Assembly (NCBI GenBank): GCA_041690355.1
Contig: JAWLHK010000001.1
Span: forward strand, 361,376 to 425,375
Direction: 5' to 3'
Length of the DNA stretch: 64,000 nt
DNA from: a bacterium
GTDB lineage: Bacteria; J088; JAWLBW01
The notes below the pieces were generated by a model, which ran no database searches, was not told where the DNA came from, and was given only the letters and a program-made list of their open reading frames with translations. Positions 2,993 to 55,868 of this stretch are shown one piece after another. Both the position numbers and the translations under genes were made by a program. The stretch's first letter is position 1. The number at the start of each line of letters is the position of its first letter.

Positions 2993-3379
2993 ATGGAAGT
3001 GCGGCGCATCCTGGCCATCGACGACGACGAAGACATCCTGACGGTCGTCCAGAAAGTGCTGCGCCGTGCAGGCTGGGAGATACATACGGCCGGCTCGCAC
3101 GAAGAGGCCATGGCCTTGGCGGCCACGGTACGCCCCGAACTCATTCTGCTCGACATGGACATGCCCGGGTGCGACGGCGCCTGCCTGCTCGAGCGGCTGC
3201 GCGGCCTGCCTGAAACGGCGGCGGTTCCCGTCTTTTTTCTTTCGGGGGGATTCGGCGCCGACGATTCGGACACCATCCCCGGCGCCCAGGGCCTGCTACG
3301 CAAACCGTTCGGGCCGACGGAGCTGCCCGCGCAGATCCGTCGCCTTCTCGACGCGCTCGAACCGTCGGCGTCCGCATGA
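2993..3379 (+). CDS. Single-domain response regulator (CheY-like receiver)
   Basis: AIDDDED acidic pocket, LILLDMDMP phospho-Asp, FFLSGG and LRKP. The start was reassigned to an internal ATG; the ORF-track start at 2867 is an unsupported upstream extension. The stop overlaps the next gene start (ATGA). Confidence 0.8.
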   Translation: MEVRRILAIDDDEDILTVVQKVLRRAGWEIHTAGSHEEAMALAATVRPELILLDMDMPGCDGACLLERLRGLPETAAVPVFFLSGGFGADDSDTIPGAQGLLRKPFGPTELPAQIRRLLDALEPSASA

Positions 3380-5400
3380 AAATTCTTCTCGTCGACGACG
3401 ATCAGGCCTTCGTCGATCTCCTGCAGAAAACGCTGATCCACCACGGCCACACGGTAAGCGTCGCCTATCGTATCCGTGACGCGCGAACCCTTCTCGAGCG
3501 TGAGCGGCCGGATCTCGTCGTCGTCGACGGGCTGCTCCCCGACGGTAACGGAATGGCGTGGATCGAGGAGCGGCGGCAGGCCGGCGACACCTCGACCTTT
3601 CTCTTTCTCTCGGCGTTCTTCCGCGATCTGGCCAGCTTCCGCCGATTGACGCGCGACCTCTCGGTTCCGCTGATTCTGCACAAACCGATTTCACCGCTCG
3701 AGTTCATGCGGCAGGCGGCGCACTTTCTCGAGCCGACGGCTTCAGCCCCGGTTCCCCAGGCGCTGCCCGGCACGGCCCTCCTGCTGCCGCCGGCGGAATT
3801 CGACGATACCATCGATGATTTCGCCGCCGAGCTTGCGGGCCTGCGCGCCGAGTATCAGGCGAAGCTTGCCGTGCGGTTCGAAGACCTGGGGACGGCGCTT
3901 GCCGAGGCCGAACGCGACCCTGACCGGCACGAAACCGCCCTTCGCCTCGCCCACCGCCTGCACGGCACGGCCGGCTCGTACGGCTTTCACGAAGTGAGCG
4001 CCGCAGCGGGCACCATCGAAACCGCCCTGCGGGCGACCCCGCCCCGGTTCGCACAGGCGCGCGAGATGCTGCACCGCATGGTGCGACTGGGGGCGCTCAG
4101 CGATCCGCGGTCCGAGGCGGCCATGCCGGGCGCCTGGGTCGCCACCGTGCTCGTGATCGATTCCGATCCGGCCTTCCAGGTTGCCGTCCGCCATCTGGCC
4201 GACCGCGCCCTGGTACGCGTGTTCGGCGCCGCAGATGCCGCTGAGGCCCTCGCGCTGGTCTCCCGCAGCGAGTTCGACGGCATTCTGGTGAATCTGAGCG
4301 CCGCGCTGGAGAACGACGCCGCCCTTCTGGCCACGCTGCGCGGCCTCAAAGAGACGACCGGCGTGCCCATCGCCGTCCTGGCCGACGAAGCCGACGACGG
4401 CATCGAGAACCGCATTGCGGCGCAGCACGCGGGAGCCTCGCTCTTTCTCACGCGCCCGCTCGACTATCCCTCGTTCACGGACGGCGTGCGTTATCTCGCG
4501 GCCCTGCGGCATGCGGCTCGGGCCACCGTGCTGGCCGTCGACGACGACGCAGACTTTCTGCAGCTGCTCGAAAGTATGCTGCGCTCTGCCGGGTACCAGG
4601 CCGCGGTGTCAGCGGAACCGGAGTCGATACTCACGCTGCTAGCCGATCGGCAACCCGACGTCCTTCTGCTCGACGTCGACATGCCGACCATGTCGGGGTT
4701 CGACGTGTGCCGCATGCTGCGCACCCACTCGCGCTGGCGCGAGCTTCCCGTTCTCTTTCTGACCTCGCGCACCGATATGGAGTCGCGCATCGAAGCGTTT
4801 CGCGCGGGGGGCGACGACCTGCTCGTCAAGCCGATTGTGCGCGAGGAACTCGCCGCGCGCCTCGATCTGCGGCTCGAGCGCAATCGCCTGCTGCGTGAGA
4901 AGATGGAGCACGACGGCTTGACCGGCCTCCTGCTGCGCCCCCCATTTCTCACCGCGCTTGCCGCGCGCCTGCACGAGGCGGCGCGCAAGAACGCAAGCCT
5001 CGCGGTGGCCTTGCTCGACGTCGACCATTTCAAAACGGTCAATGATCGATACGGCCACGGGGTCGGCGACCGCGTCCTTGCGCGCCTCGGGGCGTCGATT
5101 GCCGGCCGGTTCCGCGCCGAGGATCTGCGCGCGCGCTGGGGCGGCGAGGAGATCGCGCTGGCTTTTCTCGAACAGTCGGCCGAGATGGCGCACGCGCTGC
5201 TCGAACGGCTGCTCGCCGAGTTTTCGCGTATCGAGTTCCACAGCGATGCGGGAGAATCCTTCCACGTCCAGTTCAGCGCCGGCGTGGCTGCGTTTCCCGC
5301 GGATGGCGACACGGTGGAACTGTTGCTGAAACGCGCCGACGATCGCCTGCTGGCCGCCAAGCGCGCGGGGCGCAACCGCATCAACTCGAGTGACGAGTGA
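3376..5400 (+). CDS. Multidomain response regulator / diguanylate cyclase: REC-HPt-(pseudo)REC-REC-GGDEF
   Basis: REC1 has DDD, VVVDGLLPD and LHKP. An HPt-like helix carries LAHRLHGTAGSYGF. REC2 has the phospho-acceptor replaced (ILVNL) and K replaced by R. REC3 is intact (DDD, LLLDVDMP, FLTSR, LVKP). A C-terminal GGDEF domain has the RWGGEEI active-site variant and an RAED (RxxD) I-site. Confidence 0.8.
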   Translation: MKILLVDDDQAFVDLLQKTLIHHGHTVSVAYRIRDARTLLERERPDLVVVDGLLPDGNGMAWIEERRQAGDTSTFLFLSAFFRDLASFRRLTRDLSVPLILHKPISPLEFMRQAAHFLEPTASAPVPQALPGTALLLPPAEFDDTIDDFAAELAGLRAEYQAKLAVRFEDLGTALAEAERDPDRHETALRLAHRLHGTAGSYGFHEVSAAAGTIETALRATPPRFAQAREMLHRMVRLGALSDPRSEAAMPGAWVATVLVIDSDPAFQVAVRHLADRALVRVFGAADAAEALALVSRSEFDGILVNLSAALENDAALLATLRGLKETTGVPIAVLADEADDGIENRIAAQHAGASLFLTRPLDYPSFTDGVRYLAALRHAARATVLAVDDDADFLQLLESMLRSAGYQAAVSAEPESILTLLADRQPDVLLLDVDMPTMSGFDVCRMLRTHSRWRELPVLFLTSRTDMESRIEAFRAGGDDLLVKPIVREELAARLDLRLERNRLLREKMEHDGLTGLLLRPPFLTALAARLHEAARKNASLAVALLDVDHFKTVNDRYGHGVGDRVLARLGASIAGRFRAEDLRARWGGEEIALAFLEQSAEMAHALLERLLAEFSRIEFHSDAGESFHVQFSAGVAAFPADGDTVELLLKRADDRLLAAKRAGRNRINSSDE

Positions 5401-5450
5401 CTTAGAGTTTTGAGTTCCGAGTTTTGAGTGACGAGTGACGAGTGACGATC
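5388..5450 (+). repeat. Heptanucleotide tandem array A: about 9 in-phase units of GAGTGAC / TTTGAGT type
   Basis: gagtgac gagtgac ttagagt tttgagt tccgagt tttgagt gacgagt gacgagt gacgatc. The first two units encode the last residues and the stop codon of the GGDEF gene. Confidence 0.8.
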
Positions 5451-5522
5451 TGTCCGGAAAGGACCTTGGTGCCAGTCTGGCGCTCAGTGCTTGGCGCTCG
5501 CTCCCCCTGCTCTTGCTTCTTA

Positions 5523-5550
5523 AGAATTAAGAATCAGGAATCAGGAATGC
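5523..5550 (+). repeat. Heptanucleotide tandem array B: 4 units of AAGAATC / AGGAATC type
   Basis: aagaatt aagaatc aggaatc aggaatg, 72 nt downstream of array A. Confidence 0.75.
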
Positions 5551-5617
5551 TCTGATCCCCTCCCCCCTTCCCCGCCTCCGGATCCGATTTTATAGTGGAC
5601 TCTCGAAGAGAGGTCCC

Positions 5618-5896
5618 ATGGCGAGTACAGAACCTACGGCGCCCCAGGTGTCGATGACCCGGCTCATCGTGACGATTGCGGTTTTCGTCGTCATCGGATT
5701 GCCCATGGTCGGCTACCTGTGGGAAACGCTCAACGGCGTGCTCGCGCTGCGGAGCAGCTGGCAACAGGTGGGGATCGCGATTCCCGTCCTGGCCGTCTTT
5801 CTCGTGCTGCTCTTTCTGCTGGCGCGCACGATCGAGCGGTGGAACGACGGAGCGTCTTCACGGGCCGGCCGCGCCGGCGGAGGGAGTCATGGCTGA
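5618..5896 (+). CDS. Small 2-TM membrane protein, function unknown (first gene of the oxidase cluster)
   Basis: Two hydrophobic helices. RBS AGAGAGG upstream. Overlaps the next gene by 7 nt. Confidence 0.45.
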   Translation: MASTEPTAPQVSMTRLIVTIAVFVVIGLPMVGYLWETLNGVLALRSSWQQVGIAIPVLAVFLVLLFLLARTIERWNDGASSRAGRAGGGSHG

Positions 5897-8243: not shown

Positions 8244-9392
8244 TCAGGGAAGAAGTGCCGCCAGCAGCCGCACGACGTTACCGCCCATGATTTTGCGAAC
8301 GTCGTCTTCGGTGAATCCCTCAGCAAGCAGTGCGTCGGTCAACATGGCGAAGTTGGCGGCATCGAACGGCGTGCTGACCATGCCGTCGAAATCGGATCCG
8401 AGCGCCACGTGGTCGACCCCCACGACGTCAACGGTGTGGCGCATGGCGCGCACGACCGCGGCAACGTCTTCTCCGCAGGTGGCGAGCTTGAAGAACGCAA
8501 TGCCGATGACGCCCCCGTTACGCGCGATGGCGCGCAGCTGATCGTCCGACAGATTGCGGTTGTTCTCGCAGGTCCCCTTGACGCCCGTGTGCGAGATGAA
8601 AATCGGGCGCCGGGTAAGCCGGAGCACTTCGTCGAGGACCGGGGCCGAGGCGTGGGCGAGATCGATGATCATCTTCTTCTCGTCCATCCGCTTCACCCAG
8701 GCACGGCCGAGCGGCGTCAGACCACCCTTCTTCTTGCCGTGAGCCGAGCCGCCGATATCGTTGTCGAAGAAGTGCGTGGGGGCGACCATGCGCACGCCGG
8801 CGTCATAGAAGACGTCGAGGTTACTCAGGTTCCCCTCGAGCGCATGCGCCCCCTCGATGCCGAGAAAGCCGGCGATCAGGTCCGGCTCCGCCTTGCGGCG
8901 ATCGAGAAAGGCAGCCAGATCGGCCCGGGTCCGGATGATCACGAACTTTCCGTCCGAAGCGTCTGCGGCAGCCTGCAGCTTGCCCGCCTGATAGAGCGTG
9001 CGGCTCACGAGCGACGACCAGGTCGGCGTGGGCCATCCCTGCGCCATGGCAAGGACGCTGATCAGGTCTCCCTGATCGCCCGTGCTGTCAATGTTGATGT
9101 CGGCCGGCACCTTGCTGACGATCGTGAAGGCCTGGAGGGCATGATTGCCCGCCCGCATGCGCGCCAGGTCGACATGGCCGGCGTCGTTCGGTCCCTCGAT
9201 GGGCCGGTTCCACAACAGCGAGTCGGCGTGCAGGTCGGCGGTGAGGAGCTCACGATGCAGTGCGGCGGCGCGTTCGCTCACGGTTGCCGGCTCCTGGGTC
9301 ACGGCGTTGAACGACCGATCGACACGAGAGGCGGCGAAGCATCCCCCGAGCAGCAGGAGGGCAGCGGGCAGGAGCAAGGAGCGCGGGCGCAT
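8244..9392 (-). CDS. Membrane dipeptidase (peptidase family M19), secreted or lipoprotein
   Basis: DLHADSL and HVALGSDFDG motifs of renal-dipeptidase-family enzymes. Start set at the internal ATG that begins the signal peptide MRPRSLLLPAALLLLGGC. Confidence 0.8.
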   Translation of the reverse strand: MRPRSLLLPAALLLLGGCFAASRVDRSFNAVTQEPATVSERAAALHRELLTADLHADSLLWNRPIEGPNDAGHVDLARMRAGNHALQAFTIVSKVPADINIDSTGDQGDLISVLAMAQGWPTPTWSSLVSRTLYQAGKLQAAADASDGKFVIIRTRADLAAFLDRRKAEPDLIAGFLGIEGAHALEGNLSNLDVFYDAGVRMVAPTHFFDNDIGGSAHGKKKGGLTPLGRAWVKRMDEKKMIIDLAHASAPVLDEVLRLTRRPIFISHTGVKGTCENNRNLSDDQLRAIARNGGVIGIAFFKLATCGEDVAAVVRAMRHTVDVVGVDHVALGSDFDGMVSTPFDAANFAMLTDALLAEGFTEDDVRKIMGGNVVRLLAALLP

Positions 9393-9558
9393 GGGCGGTT
9401 CTCCGGTCAGCGAGTGGAAAAGGACCAGTATACTGTCTCGGCCAGTATACTGTCTCGGAACGCCCGATGGCCAATGAGCCAATTCCAAACGCAAGCCGCA
9501 GAACTCTGAATCCTGACACCCGCCGCTTGGACCCGAAGCCCGCAGACCCGATATCCTG

Positions 9559-11196
9559 TTGGGCATGAAGTCGTTTTCGATTGCCCTGTCGCTGGTTCTT
9601 CTTTTACTCGGGCCCGCCCAGGCGGATCGTCTCTACGTCGGACCTGTCTTTCAGACGGGCAACGCGGCGCAGCCGATTGCCCGGGCCGTGCGCGTCGACG
9701 ACAAGGGGCGCATCGTGTCCGTCCATGAAGAAGTTCCCCCTGCGGCCGGGGCCGAAGTCGTTCGCCTTCCGGGCGCCAGCGCGCTTCCCGGTCTGCACGA
9801 CGCCCACCTGCATCTCGAGGGGCTCGGCATGAAGCTGACGGCCCTCGATCTCACCGGCGTGCGGTCACGGGCCGAGCTGCGGACGCGGGCCGAGGCCTGG
9901 GTGCGTGCCCATCCGGAGAGCACCGTCTACCGCGGCTTCGGCTGGGACCAGAATCTGTTTCCGGACCAGGCCTTCCCCACCTTCGCAGACGTCAACGGAA
10001 TCACCGACCGCCCGCTGTTTCTGATTCGCACCGACGGGCACGCCGCCGTGCTCAACGAGAGCGCGTTCGCACTGACGGACATTCCGCTGCGGGAAACCGG
10101 CGGCGACCCGGCCGGCGTCGGACGCGATCCGGAGGGGAATGCCACCGGACTGTTGCTCGACGAGGCGTTCATCCGCGCGGAATCGCGCATGCCCCAGCCG
10201 ACACTCGAGGAACGCAAGGAGATGATCCGGGCCGCCCTAGCCGCCGCGGCCGACGCCGGACTCACGGCGCTGCACGAGATGGCCATGTTCGGCCCGGCCA
10301 TGGATGCACTGCTGGCGCTGCAGGCAGAAGAGGGACCGCTTCCCGTGCGCGTCTACGTCTACATGGCGGGAACGCATCTGCCGTGGCTCTTCGGCGATTT
10401 CTTCGCGCACCCCTTCGGCGACGCCCGGCGCGGCCGGGTCGAGATCATGGGGATCAAGCTCATGATCGACGGGGCCATGGGGAGCCGGGGCGCGATGCTC
10501 TACGAACCCTATGCCGACGACCCCGGCAACAGCGGGCATCCTGCGTTTTCGCTGACGCTCCAGCGCTGGATCTACACCTTTGCACGCAAGGTCGGCTGGC
10601 AGGTGGCCGTGCACGCCATCGGCGACAAGGCCAACCACGAGGCCATCCGCTGGATTGAGGGGGACGCTGCTGCCAACCCCTACCCCACCCGGATTGAACA
10701 CGCCCAGTTCCTGGCCGCCGAAGACTTCGCGCGGCTCGCCGGAACCGGGGCTGTCGTGTCGATGCAGCCGGTTCACGTCGCCGACGATCTCGGCTGGGCG
10801 GGTGCACGCCTGGGGCCCGAACGCGCGGCCAGGGCCTATGCCTGGCGCAGCCACGCCGCCGCCGGCGCCCTGCTGGCGTGCGGCAGCGATGCCCCGGTCT
10901 CCGACATCCGCCCGACGCTCGGATTTCACACCGCGCTCACCCGTCAGACACCGGAGGGAACGCCCCCGGGCGGCTGGTATGCGGAACAACGGCTGACCTG
11001 GCCAGAAGTCCTGCGCTGCTACACACAGGGAGCTGCCGCGGCGGTGCGGCGCGACGGGGAGCTCGGTTCCCTCGTCCCCGGAAAGCTCTTCGACGTGACG
11101 CTCTTCGACCGCGACTGCCGCGATGACGCTTCCTGCTGGCTCGCCGCGCGTCCCTTGGGCACGGTGCTCGAAGGCGAATTGCGCCTGCCGCGGTGA
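9559..11196 (+). CDS. Secreted metal-dependent amidohydrolase (Amidohydro_3 / YtcJ-like)
   Basis: Signal peptide. LPGLHDAHLHLEGLG metal-binding motif. C-terminal GSDAPV motif. Confidence 0.75.
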   Translation: MGMKSFSIALSLVLLLLGPAQADRLYVGPVFQTGNAAQPIARAVRVDDKGRIVSVHEEVPPAAGAEVVRLPGASALPGLHDAHLHLEGLGMKLTALDLTGVRSRAELRTRAEAWVRAHPESTVYRGFGWDQNLFPDQAFPTFADVNGITDRPLFLIRTDGHAAVLNESAFALTDIPLRETGGDPAGVGRDPEGNATGLLLDEAFIRAESRMPQPTLEERKEMIRAALAAAADAGLTALHEMAMFGPAMDALLALQAEEGPLPVRVYVYMAGTHLPWLFGDFFAHPFGDARRGRVEIMGIKLMIDGAMGSRGAMLYEPYADDPGNSGHPAFSLTLQRWIYTFARKVGWQVAVHAIGDKANHEAIRWIEGDAAANPYPTRIEHAQFLAAEDFARLAGTGAVVSMQPVHVADDLGWAGARLGPERAARAYAWRSHAAAGALLACGSDAPVSDIRPTLGFHTALTRQTPEGTPPGGWYAEQRLTWPEVLRCYTQGAAAAVRRDGELGSLVPGKLFDVTLFDRDCRDDASCWLAARPLGTVLEGELRLPR

Positions 11197-11219: not shown

Positions 11220-11441
11220 TCAGGCCAACGCGAACTGGTGTCCGCAGGCGTTGCAGTTCCAGTCGGGGTCGTCACCGTCGATGATGCACCCGCCGAGCAC
11301 GATGCGGTCTTCGCGGGCGTCCGCGAGCGCTTCGTCGGTCGGGTACCCGTAGAGGATCCGTACCACTTCAGTTGATCCGCAGGCGGGGCACGGGGGCGCA
11401 GATTCCTGAATGAGCGTCTGGTCGTCGTCGTGGTCGTGCAT
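11220..11441 (-). CDS. Small zinc-ribbon protein
   Basis: CPACGS...CNACGH four-Cys zinc ribbon. Start set at MHDHDDD; the longer ORF (to 11546) overlaps the repeat arrays. Confidence 0.4.
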   Translation of the reverse strand: MHDHDDDQTLIQESAPPCPACGSTEVVRILYGYPTDEALADAREDRIVLGGCIIDGDDPDWNCNACGHQFALA

Positions 11442-11508: not shown

Positions 11509-11557
11509 GCAGAAGCGCCAAGCACCAAGCGCCGAGCGTCAAGCAAGCAAGGACAAG
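11509..11557. repeat. Heptanucleotide tandem array: about 7 units of NNCAAGC type
   Basis: cagaagc gccaagc accaagc gccgagc gtcaagc aagcaag gacaagc. Confidence 0.6.
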
Positions 11558-11574
11558 CGCCCTGTGTTCTTTCC

Positions 11575-11609
11575 GGTCAATCGTCAATCGTAAATTGTAA
11601 GTCGTCAAT
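11575..11609. repeat. Heptanucleotide tandem array: 5 units of GTCAATC type
   Basis: gtcaatc gtcaatc gtaaatt gtaagtc gtcaatc, 17 nt after the previous array. Confidence 0.65.
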
Positions 11610-11691
11610 CGATCGGAATTCCCTTGCCGCTTTCCAAAGGGGTGCGGTAGATTGGCAGTTTACGCCCCGCTATCCCCATGGAGGTTCTGCG

Positions 11692-12519
11692 ATGAAACTG
11701 CTCCCGCGCTTTGCACTGGCTGCCGCCCTTTCGTTTGCATCCGCACTGCCGGCCTCGGCCCAGGAGGCGAAGGGAGCGACCGAGCTCACCTGGTTCGGTC
11801 ATGCCGCTTTCCAGCTGAAGACCCCCTCGGGAAAGATCGTCCTGATCGACCCCTGGCTTACGAATCCGGCCAACCCGAAGGGGAAAGAACAGCTGGAGCA
11901 ACTTGCGAAGGCCGACCTCATCCTCCTCTCACACGGCCATTCCGACCACGTCGGCGACTCCACCGCCATCGCCCGGAAAACCGGCGCGAAGCTGGTCGCC
12001 ACCTTTGATCTCGGGAATGCCATGGTGGCCTATTCCGGTTTTCCGGCCAAGCAGACCGGCTATGACACGATGGGGAATTTCGGCGGCGAGCTGAGCCTTC
12101 TGGACGGCGAAGTTCTGGTGCGCCTCGTCCCGGCCGTTCATGGGTCGACCATCAAGCTCGAGAACAAGCCCGACGTACATGCGGCAGGGAATCCGGGCGG
12201 GTTCGTCATCCGCGTCAAGAACGGTCCGACGATTTACCACACCGGCGACACCGATGTCTTCGGCGACATGGCCCTCATCGGCGAACGCACGAAGATCGAC
12301 TACCTGCTCGCGCCCATCGGGGGCCATTTCACGATGGACCCGACAGGGGCCGCCCGGGCCGTGAAGCTCATCGGCGCGGCCACGGTCATCCCCATGCACT
12401 TCGGCACCTTTCCCGTACTGAAGGGAACCCCGGCGCAGCTTCAGGAAGCCCTGAAGAAAGAGGCAAGCAAGGCCAGGGTCCGCGAGATGAAGATCGGCGA
12501 AACCATTCCGCTGAAATAG
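11692..12519 (+). CDS. Secreted MBL-fold metal-dependent hydrolase (UPF0173-like)
   Basis: Signal peptide MKLLPRFALAAALSFASALPASA. HGHSDH metal-binding motif. Start reassigned to an internal ATG. Confidence 0.7.
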   Translation: MKLLPRFALAAALSFASALPASAQEAKGATELTWFGHAAFQLKTPSGKIVLIDPWLTNPANPKGKEQLEQLAKADLILLSHGHSDHVGDSTAIARKTGAKLVATFDLGNAMVAYSGFPAKQTGYDTMGNFGGELSLLDGEVLVRLVPAVHGSTIKLENKPDVHAAGNPGGFVIRVKNGPTIYHTGDTDVFGDMALIGERTKIDYLLAPIGGHFTMDPTGAARAVKLIGAATVIPMHFGTFPVLKGTPAQLQEALKKEASKARVREMKIGETIPLK

Positions 12520-17076: not shown

Positions 17077-17577
17077 ATGGCGAACCGCAGCGCATCCCCC
17101 ACGGCAAAACGGACCCTGAAAGCGCGCGAGCGGGCCGCCGAGGCCATCCGCACGCTCGAAATCGTGTTCCCCAACCAGACCAACCACTACGGAACGATGT
17201 TCGGCGGCCAGGTCATCGCGCTCGCCGACAAGGCCGCCTACTTCGCGGCCAACAGCTACTGCCGGTGCAACTGCGTGACGGCGAGCATGGAGCGCTTCGA
17301 CTTCCGGCACCCGATCCGTTCGGGCGACACGATCGAAGCCTGGGCCAAGGTCGTCTACACGGGGCGCACGTCGATGATCGTCAAGGTCGAAATCCGGGCC
17401 CAGAAGCCGAACCGGGACGAGGCGGTCCTGTGTACGGAAGGATTCCTCACCATGATCGCACTCGGCGAAGACGGCCGCCCCACGACGGTTCCGCCCCTCA
17501 AGATCCGCACGCGCAAGGAGCAGGACGACTGGGAAGAGGCGCGCAAGATCCGCAAGGCCCACGCCGCCGCACGCTAG
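17077..17577 (+). CDS. Acyl-CoA thioesterase (hotdog fold, YciA-like)
   Basis: NHYGTMFGGQVIALAD motif typical of YciA/acyl-CoA hydrolase hotdog proteins. Confidence 0.75.
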   Translation: MANRSASPTAKRTLKARERAAEAIRTLEIVFPNQTNHYGTMFGGQVIALADKAAYFAANSYCRCNCVTASMERFDFRHPIRSGDTIEAWAKVVYTGRTSMIVKVEIRAQKPNRDEAVLCTEGFLTMIALGEDGRPTTVPPLKIRTRKEQDDWEEARKIRKAHAAAR

Positions 17578-17596
17578 GGCGACGCCGTTCCCGTTT

Positions 17597-17624
17597 CAGG
17601 AATCAAGAATCTGGAATCAGGAAT
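17597..17624 (+). repeat. Heptanucleotide tandem array B copy: 4 units of CAGGAAT type
   Basis: caggaat caagaat ctggaat caggaat, 20 nt after the thioesterase stop, followed by the hairpin at 17633-17652. Confidence 0.7.
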
Positions 17625-17632
17625 GCAACCTT

Positions 17633-17652
17633 CCTGACGCGCCAGCGTCAGG
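17633..17652. terminator. Perfect hairpin between convergent genes (thioesterase / yebC-like), candidate bidirectional terminator
   Basis: CCTGACGC-GCCA-GCGTCAGG, overlapping the yebC-like stop codon. Confidence 0.5.
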
Positions 17653-25326: not shown

Positions 25327-25506
25327 ATGGCAGTGGAATACAAGGTCGCCGAAACGAGCGACGTCAGCGACAGCGGCCTCGAAAAGATTCTCAACCAGCT
25401 GACGGCGCAGGGCTGGGCCCTCGAAGGGATTCATTTCGCCATGCGCGACAACAGCCGCCGCCCGGCCATGGCCTTCGTCATCTTCTCGCGCGAGCGCGCG
25501 GATTGA
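25327..25506 (+). CDS. DUF4177-like small protein (59 aa)
   Basis: Not in the ORF track (<60 aa). MAVEYKVAE ... QGWALEGIHFA pattern typical of DUF4177. The stop codon is the first unit of a heptamer array. Confidence 0.45.
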   Translation: MAVEYKVAETSDVSDSGLEKILNQLTAQGWALEGIHFAMRDNSRRPAMAFVIFSRERAD

Positions 25507-25551
25507 TTCCTGATTCCGATTCCTGATTCCTGATTCCTGATTCTTGAGAGA
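25504..25551 (-). repeat. Heptanucleotide tandem array B copy (reverse orientation): about 7 units of TGATTCC
   Basis: tgattcc tgattcc gattcc tgattcc tgattcc tgattcc tgattct. Starts at the stop codon of the DUF4177-like gene. Read on the minus strand it is (GGAATCA)n. Confidence 0.8.
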
Positions 25552-25575: not shown

Positions 25576-25617
25576 CGTCACTCGTCACTCGCAACTCGCA
25601 ACTCGTAACTCGCCACT
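25576..25617 (-). repeat. Heptanucleotide tandem array A copy (reverse orientation): 6 units of GTCACTC / GCAACTC
   Basis: gtcactc gtcactc gcaactc gcaactc gtaactc gccactc. Abuts the stop codon of the minus-strand CTP_transf_1-family gene. Confidence 0.8.
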
Positions 25618-25621
25618 CCCC

Positions 25622-26599
25622 CTACAGCAGCAGCGCCCCCACGGCGGCGCAGACGAGTGGAATCGAGAGGTTATCGTCGACGCGGCTGCTGAGCAGTTCG
25701 GTCACGGCCCCCGCCGCGGCAATCCCGGCCGCAATGCCGAGCCCCGCCGCCACACCCAGAGCGGGCTGCGTCAGCAGCAGGAGGGCGCCGACCGAGATCA
25801 GGCCCGTGAAAAAGAAACCGAGCGTGCCCGCCCAGCTCTTGTCGCGGAAGAGTTTGCGCCGGCCCCAGCGCTTGCCGACAAGGGAGGCGATCGGGTCGCT
25901 GAAGCCGAGCACGAGCACGGCCGCCTCGACGGCGACCTTGGGAAAGAACCAGGTAATGATGATGAGCGCCAGCAGATAGAGCGTGGCCGAGTTGGTGCGG
26001 TAGCGCTCTGAAGGGCGGGATATCGAGCCGAAGACCTTGTCGACCAGAAAATCGTTCCAGCGGGTCGAGAAACGCCGCGTCACCTCGAGTACGAAGAAAA
26101 CCGAGAAGATCGTGCCCAGCACCATCAGCGCGCTCTCGCGAGTCAGCACGAAGTGATAGAGCGTGAAGGCAATCACGCCGTTGGACATGTGGAAAAGGTT
26201 CCGCACGTAGTTCGTCGGCTTGAGCTGACGGGAGAGCCCCAGGGCCGCGGCGCGTTCGGCATGGCGCTTCTTGAGCTCAAGCAGCAGCTCTTCGTAGCTC
26301 CGCGCCAGACGCTCCTTGCGTTCCTTCAACGCCTGCACGTTGGGCGATTCGGCGAGCGTGTCGCTGTAGGCGCGCATGCGATCGGCGAGCTCCCGCAGTT
26401 TCTCCAGGCTCGACGCGGGTCCCGCGCCGGCCGTAAAAGCGGCTATCCGGCCGGCCAGGTCATCGCCGACCGCGCGCACGCGTTCACTCCACCGGCGGTC
26501 GGCGGTGCGGGGCTGCTGGATTCCGTCGATGTACTCCCTGACCTGATCGATCAGGGCTTCGATGGCTTCGAATTCGTGGGCGTTCGACGAGGCCGTCAT
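25622..26599 (-). CDS. CTP_transf_1-family membrane protein (CdsA / dolichol-kinase-like) with an N-terminal soluble domain
   Basis: C-terminal GKRWGRRKLFRDKSWAGTLGFFFTGL motif. Start at an ATG preceded by GGGAGAA; the longer G/P/R-rich N-terminal extension was rejected. Confidence 0.6.
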   Translation of the reverse strand: MTASSNAHEFEAIEALIDQVREYIDGIQQPRTADRRWSERVRAVGDDLAGRIAAFTAGAGPASSLEKLRELADRMRAYSDTLAESPNVQALKERKERLARSYEELLLELKKRHAERAAALGLSRQLKPTNYVRNLFHMSNGVIAFTLYHFVLTRESALMVLGTIFSVFFVLEVTRRFSTRWNDFLVDKVFGSISRPSERYRTNSATLYLLALIIITWFFPKVAVEAAVLVLGFSDPIASLVGKRWGRRKLFRDKSWAGTLGFFFTGLISVGALLLLTQPALGVAAGLGIAAGIAAAGAVTELLSSRVDDNLSIPLVCAAVGALLL

Positions 26600-27081
26600 G
26601 TTTTCTCCCTGCAGTGCGGCAGCGCCGGAGGGCGGATCTGAGGCGGATCCTCCCGAGGCGGCGCCCCCGAGAAAGGGTACCACGTTCGGGCCCGTCCGTC
26701 CCAGAAGGGGGCGGCTCTCGCCGGAGCCCCCGATTCCCCGACGGTCGCACCGTGGCGCGCAAGTCCGCGCAAGGCCGACGGCGGGGGCAATGAGGCCCCC
26801 CGAGCCGCGGTTTCCGGGCACCCCGAACCGCCTCCCGGACGGCCCGGCGACCGGCTCCGGCACGCTTCCGGACGTTTGCAAAGGGGGCGCCCGGCGTGGT
26901 ACCATGTAACGATCAACAAATCACGACATTTTTTTCGTAATTAGAACAGGATTTACACTCCCCGACCGGCAGATCGCCATCAACTTTCCCGCCGGGAACG
27001 TATCTCCGGCCTGCCCTCGGCCTCCCCGGCGCCCCTCGGCAGTCCGGGGCTCCGACTGATGAAATCCACTTCGAGCCACAC

Positions 27082-36400: not shown

Positions 36401-36657
36401 CTCGCGCCGGCCTGACGGAACTGGTCGACGATGGCCCGCGCGATCCGCTCGACGCTCCCCTCGCGCACGACGACGGCGCCGATGCGGGCAAGCGCGGCAA
36501 AGCTGTGCGCCTGCGGAAATCCGTCTACCCTGCGCGCCTCGCCGCGCGGCCGGCGCTCAGGATCTCGGGATGGCTGCTCGCTCATGAAACTCGCATCAAC
36601 CTCGCCGCGGGGCGGCTCTCCGGGCGTCAGGGATGAATAGGGGCATTTCAGCTCCAT
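33436..36657 (-). CDS. Multi-sensor histidine kinase (GAF plus about 5 PAS plus HisKA plus HATPase), no receiver
   Basis: H-box GVIAHDLRQPLT. G-boxes GTGLGLYIVKGIVEAHGG. Repeated PAS modules. Confidence 0.8.
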   Translation of the reverse strand: MELKCPYSSLTPGEPPRGEVDASFMSEQPSRDPERRPRGEARRVDGFPQAHSFAALARIGAVVVREGSVERIARAIVDQFRQAGASMAHVHLLDPDRRRLGLIASDGIPPQLVEQVCELSLDSPLLAARAANRKEIQVADLRRPLDSELTLAARVMAASGSHTVIAVPLIVHSSCVGTLTLGFPEERVVSDEECETFVAIGEVFASGISSAQARAQLDESTRKVDEIIETAPVGMAIVGLDGTFERANRALCEMLGYTPEELGRIRFQDVTHPDDLNVDLELAERLRTGEIPNYRLSKRYVHKNGAVIHAILSGSAVRDENGYARYYIAQIVDMSEARRREEALAESEERFRLMAENARDIVFRWSLQTNRFDYLSGATRKLLGYAPEEFDADPELVFRLMSPETRAMVRAMLNGERESRSPVRAYLSHRDGSGVCHEIGFTPVVHDERIVAVEGISRDITERERSEQALAESERRLAFVAAHAPGTIFYQDTRLFYTWFARIRPPFDDSAVGRTDLDLFRPDQAARIVIEKRRVIETRQPSRCELEISTGERNLIFDAVHEPRFDDKGAIIGLAGYWTDITDRIETERRLRLNEERLREAQEVGLIGSWYWDLRTNEVQWSDEAYRLFGFGEERPKITYPMFLSMVNPDDRPRVEERVREALSRQEAYEVTHRIQLPDGRERFIQEKASIVGPPGRPERLVGTTQDVTEQHRKEAERESLLQSLDEEKRWFEALINHSPNGIILVKRDGSFMFNRRTCELFGVRLRSEGGAAQFEDLLFHIDGSPLSEEERVVPRVLRGNVVRMAEYLVRRPDGSELYVYKSAAPILDDDQNIIGAVMIFEDISEKRALEQTRERWTGVIAHDLRQPLTTVLARVEMLRHRCTGADPEVMRELDHMHASAALMNRIIGDMVDASKIEAHQLSLRRLMVDLREVACEAADRFAALGITIRVTSGEQPALAFADKMRMEQVLSNLLSNAVKYGVRDGAVAIDVRSETAQVRVSVVNDGELDRGAREQLFERYHRSRVSIRKGIEGTGLGLYIVKGIVEAHGGLVGAESGDGKTTFWFTIPKVPG

Positions 36658-36785
36658 TATCGACGGTTCCTCGGGCCCGTCGTGATAGAACTCCCTGGAA
36701 CTCCCTTCGCCCGCCCCCCTGCCGGGCCTGGTGCGATCGCCCGCCCCTTGAAGGGTATCGCTCCGGGCTGTAGAGTATAGGTTTC

Positions 36786-37190
36786 ATGGAGCGGAATGTG
36801 GAAGTCGTCACGCACAGAAACCTGATTCTGGTTTTTCACAAAGGGACCGGCAACCTCGAGCAGGGGCGCCGCATCACCGACGCCATGCGCGAAGCCGTGG
36901 CCACGCTGCGCCGTTCGCACCTGCGCATCGCGATCTACCACGACGTTTCGGAGCTTGCCGCCGCCGACAACGATTACGTCTCGGCCTTCGCCGGCCTGGC
37001 CAAGGAACTGGGCAAAGACGGCTTCGTCTTCGTGGCGACCATCCCCAAGGCCTGGGTGCGAGTTCTCGCCAAGACCGCCTCGTACCTCGGGGGGATCGAG
37101 ACCCACTTCTTCAAGACGCCTGCCGAATCGATCCAGTATCTGGAGGGCGCCGGATTCGAGTTTCCTGCAAGCGCCCACCGCGTCGCCTGA
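36786..37190 (+). CDS. Hypothetical protein (possible STAS-like fold), divergent from the sensor kinase gene
   Basis: 134 aa, no strong motif. Confidence 0.35.
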   Translation: MERNVEVVTHRNLILVFHKGTGNLEQGRRITDAMREAVATLRRSHLRIAIYHDVSELAAADNDYVSAFAGLAKELGKDGFVFVATIPKAWVRVLAKTASYLGGIETHFFKTPAESIQYLEGAGFEFPASAHRVA

Positions 37191-37354
37191 CCGTGGCGCC
37201 CAGCCCCGCACCGGTTCCCTAACCGATTTTTCGTCCAGACGTAACCCCTCGGACGGCGCCGGCGCCGCAGCGCCTCGGATTACCGTCGGCATGGAGTACG
37301 CTCGTATCGAGGAGCGGATCCATGCGCACTTTTCCGCTCCCGGAAAGGTGTACC

Positions 37355-38041
37355 ATGCGACTTCTGCTTCTGGCCCTGCTTCTCTTCTCGGCATCTGCCT
37401 GCGGTGACGACGACTCACCGGGCCAACCCACCGAAGAAACCCGGGTTCCCCCTCCCGACGATACCGACGATACCGACGATGACGATCGGGACGACGACGG
37501 AGACGACACGAATGGTGACCGTGACGACGATGACCGGGACGACGACTCTGACGACGGCAGAACATCGGGGTGCGACGTCGAAAACCGTACCATCGACGAC
37601 AACGTTTTCCTGGGCGGCGAGCAGGACTGCACCTATCGTAACGTGCGCATCACCGGAAATCTCCGGATTGACGACGGCGCCGGGTTCACGGGAACGAACC
37701 TCCGGCTCGACGGGAACCTCGAGGCCGAAGACTTCGGCGAGCTCACGCTGTCCGAATCGCTGATTCGAGGAAACGTCGAGGCCGAGCGCGGAGGAAGCGT
37801 CTCGATACTCGACTCGGAGATCGACGGAAACGTGCACCTGGAGTCGAACCGGGGGGCGATTGCCATCCTGCGCAACCGGATTGACGGCAATGTCGAGCTC
37901 GAAGACAACACGGGAGGCCCGTTCGAGATTTCCGAGAACCTGATCCGGGGAAACGTGGAATGCGAGCGCAACGACCCGGCCCCGTTCGGGAGCGGAAACC
38001 AGGTCGACGGTAATCTCGAGGATCAGTGCGCCGGCCTCTAG
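37355..38041 (+). CDS. Acidic lipoprotein with about 20-aa GN(V/L)E repeats (beta-helix-like)
   Basis: Lipobox LLFSASAC. Asp-rich linker (DDTDDTDDDDRDDDGDD...). At least 8 repeats of the form IxGNVExE. Confidence 0.5.
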   Translation: MRLLLLALLLFSASACGDDDSPGQPTEETRVPPPDDTDDTDDDDRDDDGDDTNGDRDDDDRDDDSDDGRTSGCDVENRTIDDNVFLGGEQDCTYRNVRITGNLRIDDGAGFTGTNLRLDGNLEAEDFGELTLSESLIRGNVEAERGGSVSILDSEIDGNVHLESNRGAIAILRNRIDGNVELEDNTGGPFEISENLIRGNVECERNDPAPFGSGNQVDGNLEDQCAGL

Positions 38042-52036: not shown

Positions 52037-54688
52037 ATGGTTCGCCTGCTCGCCGTCCTTCTGCTCACCGCGCCGGTTCTCGCCGCCAGCGCCGGCTGCT
52101 CCAACGTGCGCACCGAACACCCGCCCCTCGATCGCCTGCATGCCGACGTCGAGGTCTTCACCGACGAGCACGGAATTCCCCACATCTACGCCGCCAACCT
52201 GCATGACGCCATGTACATGCAGGGCTACGTGACCGCGCGCGACCGCCTCTTCCAGATGGAATGGATGCGCCGCGCCGCGGCGGGCCGCCTCAGCGAAATC
52301 CTGGGCAAGGGAGAGCGCGAGACCGATATCTTCGTACGCGCGTGGAATCTGATTGGCCGGGCCGAAGCCTGGGCGGCCGAGGCCGAGCAGGTCGATCCGG
52401 CCGCCTGGGAAGCCATTCTGGCCTATACCGAAGGGGTGAATCAGTTCATCGCCGACGCCGAGACGGGGGCCCGCGGCGCAAAGCTCTCGCCCATGTGGGG
52501 CGCGCTGGGCATCCGCCCCGAACCGGTGCGCCCCGCAGAGATTCTCGCCGTCGATCGCCTCATCACCTTTCAGGCCGCGCCCGGCACGCTCATCGAGCTG
52601 ATGCTCGAGCTGCTGCGCCAGCTGCTCGGGCAGACCTTCGAAGATCTGGTTTCGGTGAACCCGCCGGCGCACGTGTCCATCGTGCCCGGCTTCATCGACA
52701 ACCTCGACCGCACCTACCGCCCCGCAACGGCCGTCCGCGACTTCACGGCTCCGGCGCCGACCCTCGAATTCCGGTCCGAGGCGCTGCGCAGGCTGGGCGA
52801 GCTCATCCCCCGCATGCAGTCGTTGAATGGGAAGATGATCGGCGGCAGTAACGCCTGGACGGTGAATCGCGACCGCACCGCGTCGGGGGCCCCTCTTCTC
52901 GCCAACGACACGCACCAGGGTCTCGGAAATCCGCCCGTCTATTATCAGGTGCACGTCAACGCCGGCGCGGCCTACCACGCCACCGGACTGAACTTTCCCG
53001 GCGGACCCGGCGTGCAGATCGGCCACAACGAAGACGTTGCCTGGGGGGCCACGACCAACCGGGCCGACGATGCCGACCTGTTTCTCGAAGTCGTCACCGA
53101 TCTCGATGGACAGAAAGCGGTCCGGTTCAACGGCGAGAAGGTGCCCCTCGTCGAGCGCGTCGAGGTGTGGAAGTGGCGCGAACCCGACGGCACCTCGGGC
53201 GAAGAGACCATCACCTACCAGGAAGTTCCCCACCACGGCCCCGTGTTTCCACTGGAGCCGCTGCTCGGCGACAGCCTCAGCGGCATCGGCAACGCCATCC
53301 TGGTCTCCATGCGCTGGACCGGGCTCGAAGGCGGCTTCAAAGGGTCGGGCATCCGCGCATTCTTCCGCCTGAGCCGGTCGACCGACGCCAACAGCGCCGA
53401 AGAGAGCTTCACCGATTACACGGGCGGCGCCTTCAACATCCACTACGCCACCCGCGACGGCGACACCGGATACCACGCGCGCAAGATGCTCCCCATCCGC
53501 GGGTGCAGTAACCGCCCCTACCTCATGCTGCCCGGCGACGGCTCCTGCGAGTGGGTCGGCACCGTTCCGCTCGACGCGATCCCGCATGCGCGCAACCCCG
53601 AACGGGGCTTCATCGTTTCGGCGAACAACGACTCGGGCGGGGGCACCCTCGTCGGCTCGCCCGAAGACAAGAACGTGTACATCGGCGCCATCTATGACGT
53701 CGGGTTCCGGGCGCAGCGCATCGACGACGAGCTCACCCGCCTCGTCGCCCGCGGCGGCGTGAACCCCGAAGACATGATGACCCTTCAGGCCGACACCCAT
53801 TCTCTCGTCGCGGCGCGCCTGATCCCCTACTTCAAGGCGGCCCTCGCCGAAGCCCCCGGCCGCTTTACAGGCGAGACCCTCGCGGCCGCGCAGGCTATGG
53901 CCGGGTGGAACTTTACGACCGCGGGTGACTCCACTGTCGCGCACCTGTTTCACGCCTGGCTCGGCCGCGTTCTGCAGGCTACGTTCGGCGACGAGCTCTC
54001 GGCCAAGACCGACTTCAGCCTGGTGGCCCTCGACGAAATCGACGGCTCGAAGGCGCAGATCTTCGTGCGCCCGCTGCTCAAGTTCCTCGACGACACGCAA
54101 GACACCATCCACGTCATCGAAGCGGGCCAGGCTGAATTTCCCTCGGCGAGCGGCCACAACTACTTTGACGACATCAATACCGCGCCGCTCGAATCCCGTG
54201 ATCAGATTCTGCTCGACGCCTTCGCTTGGGCGTTCGCGCAGACGAACCAGGCGGCCGCGAACATGGGCTACGCGGCCTCGTGGCGCGAAAGACGCTGGGA
54301 TCAGTTTCACGTCGTGCGCCTCGACAATCCGGCCGATTTCGCCGTGCCCGCGATGATTCTCGGACCCTACGGGATCGACGGAGGGCTCTGGACGGTCGAC
54401 GTCGCCGACTTCACGCTGCTGCGCGGCGGCGCGGTTCCCGATCGCTACTTCGTGGGCAACACGCCCAGCAACCGAACCATCCACCATGTGCGCCCCGACG
54501 GGTTCGAGATGTGGCATGGCATCCCCGGCGGCCAGTCCGAACATCCGGAGAGCCCGTACTTCGGCGGCTGGGCCGAAAACTTCTACAAGAACCTTTACCA
54601 CAAGATGCCGTTCACGAAGGCAGAGGTCGAGGCGCTGGGCGTGAAGCCCGAGGTGTTCAAGGCCGGATTCGGGAACATTGCCGAATGA
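52037..54688 (+). CDS. Penicillin amidase / acyl-homoserine-lactone acylase family Ntn hydrolase, lipoprotein
   Basis: Lipobox AASAGC. GIPHIYA and DRLFQME motifs. Ser nucleophile in GGSNAWTV. 883 aa. Confidence 0.85.
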   Translation: MVRLLAVLLLTAPVLAASAGCSNVRTEHPPLDRLHADVEVFTDEHGIPHIYAANLHDAMYMQGYVTARDRLFQMEWMRRAAAGRLSEILGKGERETDIFVRAWNLIGRAEAWAAEAEQVDPAAWEAILAYTEGVNQFIADAETGARGAKLSPMWGALGIRPEPVRPAEILAVDRLITFQAAPGTLIELMLELLRQLLGQTFEDLVSVNPPAHVSIVPGFIDNLDRTYRPATAVRDFTAPAPTLEFRSEALRRLGELIPRMQSLNGKMIGGSNAWTVNRDRTASGAPLLANDTHQGLGNPPVYYQVHVNAGAAYHATGLNFPGGPGVQIGHNEDVAWGATTNRADDADLFLEVVTDLDGQKAVRFNGEKVPLVERVEVWKWREPDGTSGEETITYQEVPHHGPVFPLEPLLGDSLSGIGNAILVSMRWTGLEGGFKGSGIRAFFRLSRSTDANSAEESFTDYTGGAFNIHYATRDGDTGYHARKMLPIRGCSNRPYLMLPGDGSCEWVGTVPLDAIPHARNPERGFIVSANNDSGGGTLVGSPEDKNVYIGAIYDVGFRAQRIDDELTRLVARGGVNPEDMMTLQADTHSLVAARLIPYFKAALAEAPGRFTGETLAAAQAMAGWNFTTAGDSTVAHLFHAWLGRVLQATFGDELSAKTDFSLVALDEIDGSKAQIFVRPLLKFLDDTQDTIHVIEAGQAEFPSASGHNYFDDINTAPLESRDQILLDAFAWAFAQTNQAAANMGYAASWRERRWDQFHVVRLDNPADFAVPAMILGPYGIDGGLWTVDVADFTLLRGGAVPDRYFVGNTPSNRTIHHVRPDGFEMWHGIPGGQSEHPESPYFGGWAENFYKNLYHKMPFTKAEVEALGVKPEVFKAGFGNIAE

Positions 54689-54695
54689 GGGATAC

Positions 54696-54730
54696 GAGTG
54701 ACGAGTTACGAGTGACGAGTGACAAGTGGC
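54696..54730 (+). repeat. Heptanucleotide tandem array A copy: 5 units of CGAGTGA type
   Basis: cgagtga cgagtta cgagtga cgagtga caagtgg, starting 8 nt after the acylase stop codon. Confidence 0.7.
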
Positions 54731-54827: not shown

Positions 54828-55868
54828 ATGCGCAAGGCGATGATCTTCATTGACGGGACGTGGCTGTACTGCAATACACCGCGCCTGGCCGCCGCCTCGG
54901 GACATCCCGACTTCCATCTGGATTTCGGCAAGCTCCCCTGCGTGCTCGCCGATGAAGTTCGAAAGCAGCTCGGAGATGAAGAACTCGACGTCGTACGCAC
55001 CTGTCTGTTCGGCAGCTATGCCACGAACTGCGACCCCCGCGATGACGATGCCCGCCAGCGGCGCCTCGACTTCTTCGCCCGCCTGCGCGAAGACTATCAC
55101 TACGAGCTCGAAATCTTTCCGATCAACTTTCTGGGACGCCGCCTGAAGCGGTCTGAACGCGATCCCGAAGACCCCTTCGAGCCCCGCGAGAAGTGCGTCG
55201 ACATTTCGCTCGCCACGAGCATGCTCACGTATGCCGCGCTGCCGAACGCTTATGACATCGCCATCGCCGTGATCGGAGACGCTGATTTCAAGCCTGTGCT
55301 GCAGAGCGTGCGCAAGCTGGGCAAGCGCGTGGCCATTGCGAGTATTCACGGCAGCTGCAGCCCCGAGTTCGCCGATCCGCGCGACGAGTCGCGACTCAAG
55401 GACTTTCACATCATCTGGCTCGACCAGCTGCTCGACCGGCTGGCGTTGCGCTTCGATCCGCATGAGCTGGAGTGCGAATCGCCGATGCACAAGGGCGATC
55501 GCCGGGTGATGACTACATTTCATCCGCGGCGCGGGCAGCAGTTCTTCTGCGAGCCGTGCCGCGAAGCCTATGCGCGTTCGAGGGAGTGCGGCCGGGAGCT
55601 CCCCTGCCCCGAGGCCGAGTCGCCCTGCGTCGGCACGCCGCTCGAGGGTACGATCGTGAAGAAGGTCGCCGACCGCGGCTTCGGGTTCATCCATGCGACC
55701 GACGGCCGCGACTACTTCTTCCACCTTGCCGATCTCTGCGGATCGCTTCCGTTCGAGACCGTTGAAGAGGGCCTGGCGGTGCGCTTCGAGGTCAAGCGCG
55801 AACCAGCGAAAGAACGGGGCGGCACGGCCATGAACATCCGCCGCCTCGAGGCCGCGACCGCGCAGTAG
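54828..55868 (+). CDS. NYN-domain (PIN-like) protein with Cys-rich zinc-finger-like segment and C-terminal cold-shock domain
   Basis: N-terminal MIFIDGTWLY (NYN DGxN-type motif). CxxC-containing segment FFCEPCREAYARSRECGRELPCPEAESPC. CSD motif TIVKKVADRGFGFIHATDGRDYFFH. Confidence 0.7.
   Translation: MRKAMIFIDGTWLYCNTPRLAAASGHPDFHLDFGKLPCVLADEVRKQLGDEELDVVRTCLFGSYATNCDPRDDDARQRRLDFFARLREDYHYELEIFPINFLGRRLKRSERDPEDPFEPREKCVDISLATSMLTYAALPNAYDIAIAVIGDADFKPVLQSVRKLGKRVAIASIHGSCSPEFADPRDESRLKDFHIIWLDQLLDRLALRFDPHELECESPMHKGDRRVMTTFHPRRGQQFFCEPCREAYARSRECGRELPCPEAESPCVGTPLEGTIVKKVADRGFGFIHATDGRDYFFHLADLCGSLPFETVEEGLAVRFEVKREPAKERGGTAMNIRRLEAATAQ

Follow-up and report, generated by a model that had tools for sequence, protein, structure and literature searches.

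The 64,000-nucleotide (nt) stretch analyzed here, referred to as the window, spans positions 361,376 to 425,375 of contig JAWLHK010000001.1 (GenBank assembly GCA_041690355.1), from a bacterium of the GTDB lineage J088; JAWLBW01. The DNA of this host is 66% G+C, and the window carries short tandem arrays of 7-nt units in the gaps between its genes. We mapped the genes of the window with a codon-usage gene caller and identified those flanking the arrays by Pfam. Four heptamer units recur: A (GAGTGAC), B (CAGGAAT/GAATCAG), C (GGCGCTT), and D (GATTGAC, one base off the A unit). In the 64 kb of genome read, A arrays occur at 5.4, 25.6, and 54.7 kb, B arrays at 5.5, 17.6, and 25.5 kb, and C arrays at 11.5 kb and probably at 5.48 kb. 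An earlier note on this DNA had proposed that such arrays form a family, a view borne out by the recurring units. Direct reading of the window reproduced its sequence description, and rows from Tandem Repeats Finder (TRF) cover all the arrays that it named, plus the locus at 11.5 kb.

Heptanucleotide arrays in the window

The arrays, and one hairpin beside them, are as follows.

5388..5448, plus strand: A array, GAGTGAC twice, TTA, GAGTTTT, GAGTTCC, GAGTTTT, GAGTGAC three times (direct reading, TRF)
5478..5498, plus strand: tentative short C array, TGGCGCT CAGTGCT TGGCGCT, within the "spacer" at 5.4 kb (direct reading; absent from TRF, weak)
5520..5548, plus strand: B array, TTAAGAA twice, TCAGGAA twice (direct reading, TRF)
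11513..11561, minus strand: C array, AAGCGCC-like on the plus strand and GGCGCTT on the G-rich minus strand (TRF, direct reading)
11576..11611, minus strand: D array, GTCAATC on the plus strand and GATTGAC on the minus strand (TRF, direct reading)
17596..17624, plus strand: B array, TCAGGAA TCAAGAA TCTGGAA TCAGGAA (TRF, direct reading, Pfam)
17633..17652, no strand assigned: 8-bp G+C-rich hairpin, CCTGACGC GCCA GCGTCAGG (direct reading, folding)
25504..25547, minus strand: B array, TGATTCC on the plus strand and CAGGAAT on the minus strand, with one 6-nt unit (TRF, direct reading)
25577..25618, minus strand: A array, read on the minus strand as GAGTGGC, GAGTTAC, GAGTTGC twice, GAGTGAC twice (TRF, direct reading)
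54689..54728, plus strand: A array, GGGATAC, GAGTGAC, GAGTTAC, GAGTGAC twice, AAGTGGC (TRF, direct reading)

By a self-match criterion, the window contains 7 arrays of period 7 versus 0.49 expected (100 dinucleotide shuffles; shuffle maximum, 4). The total of 7 to 9 period-7 arrays is spread over 5 intergenic regions out of the 28 that measure at least 40 bp, and intergenic DNA makes up only ∼7% of the window. At periods 4, 8, 10, and 11, the same scan returned no arrays, and at period 5 it returned one; periods 6, 9, and 12, all multiples of three, had small excesses, as codon-periodic repeats would. Every array is intergenic, in keeping with the earlier description of the arrays as extragenic, and overlap with coding DNA is limited to first units that contribute the last codons or the stop of a gene. 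Within each region, the G-rich strand of all arrays lies on one DNA strand. Two details of the earlier description did not hold. The spacing is not strictly 7 bp, since the 5.4-kb locus has a 3-nt insertion (TTA) and one 25.5-kb unit, TCGGAA, is only 6 nt long. Nor is the spacer at 5.4 kb nonrepetitive: this 71-nt gap has TGGCGCT twice, 14 nt apart (5478 to 5498), which is the 11.5-kb unit on the opposite strand.

The earlier note had placed the arrays in the 3' regions of genes, and at four loci this is where they lie. At 5.4 kb, a response-regulator gene with Response_reg, Hpt, and GGDEF domains (3376 to 5400) runs into an A array. The array is at the end of this gene, as had been claimed, but it contains the stop codon instead of directly following it: the TGA at 5398 to 5400 is inside unit 2, and the last four residues of the protein, SSDE, are encoded by repeat units. 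The accompanying B array lies ∼70 nt 5' of the next plus-strand gene (ATG at 5618). Single arrays had been reported after a thioesterase and an acylase gene, correctly in both cases. The B array at 17.6 kb begins 18 nt past the stop (17575 to 17577) of a 4HBT thioesterase gene, and the A array at 54.7 kb begins on the very next base after the stop (54686 to 54688) of a penicillin amidase gene. At 25.5 kb, the inverted pair described after a CTP_transf_1 gene is present, with the A array starting 3 nt past the TAG stop (25622 to 25624) of a minus-strand gene (25622 to 26905) that has a weak match to this family. What had been missed there is a convergent plus-strand gene for a 59-amino-acid DUF4177-like protein (25327 to 25506), whose stop (25504 to 25506) is the first TGA of the TGATTCC array. 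The fifth locus, at 11.5 kb, had also been missed. Its arrays lie between a minus-strand zinc-ribbon open reading frame (ORF; 11220 to 11441) and a plus-strand metallo-beta-lactamase-fold gene (11692 to 12519), and because these flanking genes are divergent, the locus is outside any 3' region.

Orientation and placement beside genes

All three A arrays in the window are in the sense orientation and begin at or near a stop codon (at −13, +3, and 0 nt), and the next gene is 70 to 200 nt away. We compared this arrangement with that at ∼300 fetched loci from >15 phyla, viral contigs, and metagenomes. An A-seeded set was drawn from a (GAGTGAC)3 scan of one genome per species (119 loci among the matches listed). 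It covers Acidobacteriota, Chloroflexota, Verrucomicrobiota, Bacteroidota, Planctomycetota, Nitrospirota, Myxococcota, Actinomycetota, Pseudomonadota, candidate phyla, and others. A B-seeded set was drawn from a (CAGGAAT)3 scan of metagenomes (120 loci among the matches listed). The loci from these collection scans are samples of the matches listed and are phylogenetically nonindependent. Array orientation was defined by G minus C. The comparison of 5' with 3' ends is internal to each array and is thus little affected by the choice of gene caller.

In the fetched loci, the strand rich in G and poor in C has its 5' end against a coding boundary, usually the stop of a co-oriented gene, so that this strand is mRNA sense. 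In the A-seeded loci, the array starts within 10 nt of the stop of a co-oriented upstream gene in 41 of 57 cases (median, 2 nt), versus only 2 of 48 for the antisense counterpart, a tabulation in other genomes that agrees with the position relative to stops described in the earlier note. The genes preceding these arrays are long and high scoring. Their stop is often the array's own TGA, and other genes end in a native TAG or TAA that is followed immediately by the array. The G-rich strand has its 5' end rather than its 3' end at a stop at 87 versus 6 genome loci. Non-A units give 31 versus 2 in genome loci and 75 versus 13 in viral loci, and B units give 30 versus 12 in metagenomes. The skew is also present in arrays without a stop triplet on either strand (19 versus 7) and in those with a stop triplet on the C strand only (8 versus 2). 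Arrays with a stop triplet on the G strand abut a stop more often than the others do (65 of 146 versus 19 of 95), and G exceeds C on the sense strand in 30 of the 33 non-A arrays that adjoin a stop (p = 2.5e-7). A smaller second class has the G-rich 5' end at the start codon of an opposite-strand gene, with the C-rich strand just 5' of the ATG; this class may partly reflect the choice of start codons in gene calling. The orientation rule is real and general across the fetched loci. The exception in the window is the 25.5-kb B array, whose G-rich strand overlaps the DUF4177 stop with its 3' end.

As the earlier note had proposed, orientation follows the neighboring gene and not the chromosome strand. 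An explanation by replication strand is rejected, given that orientations alternate within 50 kb and track the adjacent gene. Transcription strand is unlikely to account for the rule, with the G-rich strand being the nontemplate strand at stops and the template strand at starts. Directional growth of the arrays was set aside, the gene-distal half being only marginally more degenerate (mismatches per unit, 1.07 versus 0.94; p = 0.05). The A unit was also inspected by eye as an elemental pause or a Shine-Dalgarno-like site, readings that failed for other units. The 60 nt 3' of the arrays are slightly more structured than shuffled sequences (mean z, −0.59; 20% below −1.5), which is no more than suggestive of a terminator downstream.

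The pairing of A and B arrays did not prove to be a conserved element. The earlier note had described an A array, a spacer, and a B array as a unit kept in order at 5.4 and 25.5 kb. We rejected a composite mobile element of this design: an alignment of four loci matches the arrays only, and the spacers (71 versus 39 nt) are unalignable. No B unit was found near A arrays among the 119 A-seeded loci listed, and no A unit near B arrays among the 120 B-seeded metagenome loci listed. Many A-seeded loci carry arrays of other heptamer units within one intergenic region. Among the neighboring array pairs in fetched loci L001 to L258, 107 of 153 are convergent, and 77 of those 107 share a unit and are inverted repeats. 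The window pairs are of the rarer kind, with the same orientation and different units. We conclude that the A-then-B pairing is peculiar to the genome of the window and is not one conserved composite unit; two independent array families would have come to occupy one untranslated gap. Convergent pairs with a shared unit make up long intergenic inverted repeats with the potential to fold into hairpins, and none of that type is present in the window.

Several other features lie near the arrays. Between the 5.5-kb B array and the next gene (region 5556 to 5617) is a 25-nt polypyrimidine tract, TCCCCTCCCCCCTTCCCCGCCTCC, and an 8-bp hairpin, GGACTCTC GAAG AGAGGTCC, at 5597 to 5616 ends one base short of the ATG at 5618. 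This hairpin could occlude the translation start. The hairpin at 17633 to 17652 lies between the 17.6-kb B array and a convergent YebC gene and overlaps the YebC stop (17648 to 17650); it resembles a terminator shared by the two genes, with no T run at either side. The gene 3' of the 54.7-kb A array (54828 to 55868) encodes an NYN nuclease domain fused to a cold-shock domain (NYN-CSD), an unusual fusion. The order from amidase to NYN-CSD also occurs in an array-free relative (locus L121, 7174 to 8205), and because the order is kept without an array, this neighborhood is not linked to the array.

Elsewhere in the window, a perfect 17-bp tandem duplication (CCAGTATACTGTCTCGG twice, 9425 to 9458) lies between divergent genes at 8244 to 9392 (minus strand) and 9559 to 11196 (plus strand). 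A run of 9-, 12-, and 15-bp repeats at 37455 to 37545 consists of 2.9 perfect copies of CCGACGATA followed by GACGATCGGGAC and TGACCGGGACGACGA; here the gene caller (36657 to 37565, minus strand) and the mechanical ORF list (37355 to 38041, plus strand) disagree. No tRNA or tmRNA genes were found in the window.

Turnover of the arrays and explanations for them

The earlier note had offered hypermutable simple-sequence repeats (SSRs) as one possible identity for the arrays, and a comparison of related genomes supported it. At one orthologous locus, the (GAGTGAC)n array is 10 units long in Alcanivorax sp. DG881 and 4 units long in an Alloalcanivorax genome, with flanks that are 94.5% identical (locus L006, 2490 to 2559, and locus L092, minus strand, 475 to 502). 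In both, the array lies 10 nt past the stop of the same gene, and the immediate flanks are identical. This variation was seen for GAGTGAC in the Alcanivorax group; for the window itself, the nearest relatives are array free. We found no period-7 arrays in 87 kb from these relatives (five loci; two near-duplicate places), versus 7 in the 64 kb of the window. The relatives compared share 57 to 62% identity in the amidase and 84 to 85% in a conserved carboxyltransferase, and they keep the gene order amidase, NYN-CSD, sigma factor, and MoxR, with no array at the amidase to NYN-CSD junction in the relative. The best named homologues of one conserved window enzyme are from Polyangiales/Sandaracinus. 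Because the syntenic loci of the nearest relatives lack arrays, the arrays are a recent trait of the lineage of the window, and the flanking genes do not need them.

We favor, at a probability of roughly 0.6, the reading that the arrays are slippage-prone repeats filtered by selection, that is, intergenic heptanucleotide SSRs of the STRR or long-SSR kind. Slipped-strand mispairing would create the arrays and alter their length. Selection would then let them survive only in untranslated DNA beside a gene and only in a tolerated orientation. Because 7 and 3 share no factor, a TGA in units such as GAGTGAC or CTGATTC is presented in all three frames by the 7-nt period, and a stop-bearing array could replace the gene's own stop once the intervening DNA is deleted. 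Such a takeover would explain why many arrays begin at or inside a stop codon. Effects on expression would be secondary, for example, as an unstructured spacer in the 3' untranslated region (UTR) ahead of a terminator. Copy-number change, lineage-specific presence, the lack of shared flanks, and the stop-dependent excess of abutment fit this combination of slippage and filter.

Several observations weigh against it. Local slippage leaves unexplained why a unit recurs at independent loci, as the A and B units each do three times in the 64-kb window and GGGAATC does in 186 arrays in Xanthomonas (PMC4692102). Nor does it account for the presence of shared units in many phyla or for the highly uneven unit frequencies. 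Two Nitrospirae genomes with flanks that are only 74% identical keep a (GTGACGA)n array that matches in length and position (L077, ∼4563 to 4583, and L098, ∼1994 to 2014, both minus strand; conserved beyond the surrounding noncoding DNA), and the AGT core of A arrays is less variable than the other positions. This core and the Nitrospirae retention hint at constraint. The model lacks some sequence-specific factor, which may be a mutational preference, a binding protein, or a spreading process, and the selective filter itself is conjecture. Avoidance of Rho loading on C-rich RNA would fit the G-rich-sense rule but cannot be the general reason, because Nostoc has the same polarity and cyanobacteria are not known to have Rho. 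In addition, the gene calls in the fetched loci come from our in-house codon-usage caller and are noncurated annotation.

The unevenness is plain among three-unit runs of identical base composition in viral contigs (loci L122 to L178), where GCAGTGA occurs at 36 loci, GAGTGAC at 15, GGATGAC at 5, and GAGGTAC at 1, a 36-fold range. On the G-rich strand of nonseed units, TCA, CAG, GTT, and AGT are enriched, and ATA, CAT, and TGT are depleted.

Such preferences would be expected if the arrays were functional cis-elements, platforms of single-stranded RNA (or DNA) that neighboring copies of a protein, each covering ∼7 nt, would occupy in a row, an alternative that we regard as possible although unlikely. 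Cold-shock-domain, S1, or KH proteins are candidate binders. They would control mRNA stability, termination, or re-initiation at coding boundaries, and the dominant unit of each genome would mirror the specificity of its own binder. In favor of such platforms, the same units recur at unrelated loci with uneven frequencies, and a core is partially conserved, as AGT in A arrays and as GGGANTN in Xanthomonas (PMC4692102); yet copy number is free to vary. Array RNA is predicted to be mostly unstructured, most Xanthomonas arrays are transcribed (PMC4692102), and deletion of a heptamer repeat alters reporter output in Nostoc recO/recF constructs, but the genes that bear arrays are functionally unrelated. 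S1, Csp, or CsrA were proposed by MacGregor as binders of TAACTGA (PMC4679880), whereas no heptamer family has a known binder. The array-free syntenic junctions in the nearest relatives, which mean that the neighboring genes do not need arrays, also count against platforms. A wider version of the idea, which we consider rather unlikely, is that the polarity does not merely follow from tolerance and that heptamer arrays are functional, G-quadruplex-independent boundary elements read by conserved machinery, either a binder with a 7-nt footprint or the ribosome. If true, it would explain why the same few units (xAGTGAx and xxxCTGA) and the same placement occur in >15 phyla and in phage-like contigs.

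We think it quite improbable that the arrays are DNA-level elements, in which a favored unit would be copied by a sequence-specific enzymatic or recombinational process or would serve as a binding site for a protein on double-stranded DNA, with array pairs acting as inverted repeats. The preponderance of convergent pairs among the fetched loci (107 of 153, of which 77 share a unit), which is also the pattern in Xanthomonas (PMC4692102), would suit this explanation, but the window pairs have the same orientation and different units and are not inverted repeats. Genomes have their own dominant units, and arrays are gained and lost abruptly between lineages; the sporadic phyletic distribution of TAACTGA was read as horizontal transfer (PMC4679880). 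In contrast, the loci share nothing beyond the arrays, and no transposase-like or other candidate gene adjoins the arrays of the window.

The proposal that B arrays are CsrA/RsmA-binding sponges in 3' UTRs, acting through AGGAA/GGA motifs, is very improbable. The B units do contain GGA, CAGGAAU is in the sense of an upstream gene at all three B loci of the window, and CsrA is listed among candidate TAACTGA binders (PMC4679880). However, the GGA motifs are 7 nt apart in a stretch predicted to be open, minimum free energy folds leaving B arrays mostly open or in weak long-range pairs, and A, C, and D arrays are placed and oriented in the same way without GGA. Placement and polarity hold across genomes whose unit sequences differ widely, and at least 120 unrelated metagenome contigs carry B arrays, which show the general polarity of other units. 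There was no Rfam match in the whole window at the gathering score and none at an E value of ≤1 in the two composite loci, CsrB/Rsm families included. A tblastn search with Escherichia coli CsrA gave no match in the 64-kb window, which is weak evidence. A phase-variation contingency locus was rejected as well: the arrays sit past stops, where unit changes leave the upstream frame intact, with the 11.5-kb pair as the only possible exception.

Comparison with known repeat families

REP/BIME elements are short extragenic repeats concentrated past gene ends and between convergent genes. Unlike these ∼35-bp imperfect palindromes, which form hairpins, the window units are 7-nt direct repeats without self-complementarity. 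Known CsrA sponges present GGA in hairpin loops along a dedicated small RNA (sRNA). The B arrays, and only these, resemble the CsrB/RsmY/RsmZ sponges in having repeated GGA motifs on one RNA strand. They differ in having no hairpin-loop presentation of GGA, no separate sRNA gene, and no Rfam match, and the same architecture is found in arrays without GGA.

Families of heptamers are closer. The earlier note had raised the possibility of a new class of repetitive extragenic element, a suggestion set aside by the STRR, long-SSR, GGGAATC, TAACTGA, and MTYCTGA repeats already described. TAACTGA arrays occur in Beggiatoaceae, Cyanobacteria, and Bacteroidetes (MacGregor 2015; PMC4679880), and their forward strand has stops in all frames, so that overlap with ORF ends is possible (PMC4679880). 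The Geobacter metallireducens genome has the heptamer families GGGACCG and MTYCTGA, the latter termed class 3 sites (PMC2700814). On its other strand, the window B unit is TTCCTGA, one base away from MTYCTGA, and like TAACTGA and MTYCTGA, it has stops in all three frames on one strand, which allows arrays to overlap an ORF end. Unlike TAACTGA in Beggiatoa, which is mostly just 5' of start codons, B arrays in the window and in metagenomes are mostly beside stops.

Tandem intergenic heptanucleotides were described in cyanobacteria as STRR, a kind of repeat known since 1990. Mrazek et al. 2007 are reported to have identified heptamers as the commonest long SSR in many genomes, with polymerase slippage proposed as the cause. 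The window arrays share with both tandem heptanucleotide units, intergenic location, and sporadic occurrence in some large genomes; the units differ, and the host is not a cyanobacterium. Three features of the SSR class are present in the window: at least three head-to-tail 7-nt copies beyond chance, a noncoding location, and the same unit at several unrelated loci. The main outcome of the analysis is this label: the window arrays are ordinary representatives of a class of repeats described in 1990. They warrant no annotation as a new kind of element, as a sponge-type sRNA, or as a composite of A and B.

A close counterpart is the work of Rehm et al. 2015 (PMC4692102) on GGGAATC in Xanthomonas (186 arrays) and GGGGAYT in Nostoc PCC 7120, in which ∼90% of arrays are intergenic and each unit occurs at hundreds of loci. 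Those arrays lie 28 nt from the ORF 5' of the G-rich strand versus 160 nt from the next ORF. Convergent pairs are frequent among them, most of the arrays are transcribed, and their length differs from species to species; the neighboring genes belong to no particular functional class (PMC4692102). The window and fetched loci likewise have the G-rich 5' end close to an ORF and the 3' end far from one. The differences are that GAGTGAC, CAGGAAT, GATTGAC, and GGCGCTT have no run of three G's and that the window pairs combine different units in the same orientation, where the pairs of Rehm et al. are convergent and share a unit. From their sequences, we judge that the window units cannot form G-quadruplexes. 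The rule also holds for units without G-tracts, so quadruplexes cannot be what causes the polarity. The repeat class and its placement rule are therefore already known from Xanthomonas and Nostoc (PMC4692102). Our modest addition is that the polarity rule extends to units incapable of quadruplexes in many phyla, viral contigs, and metagenomes. This removes the quadruplex explanation and sharpens the question of why particular 7-mers accumulate at stops with the G-rich strand first.

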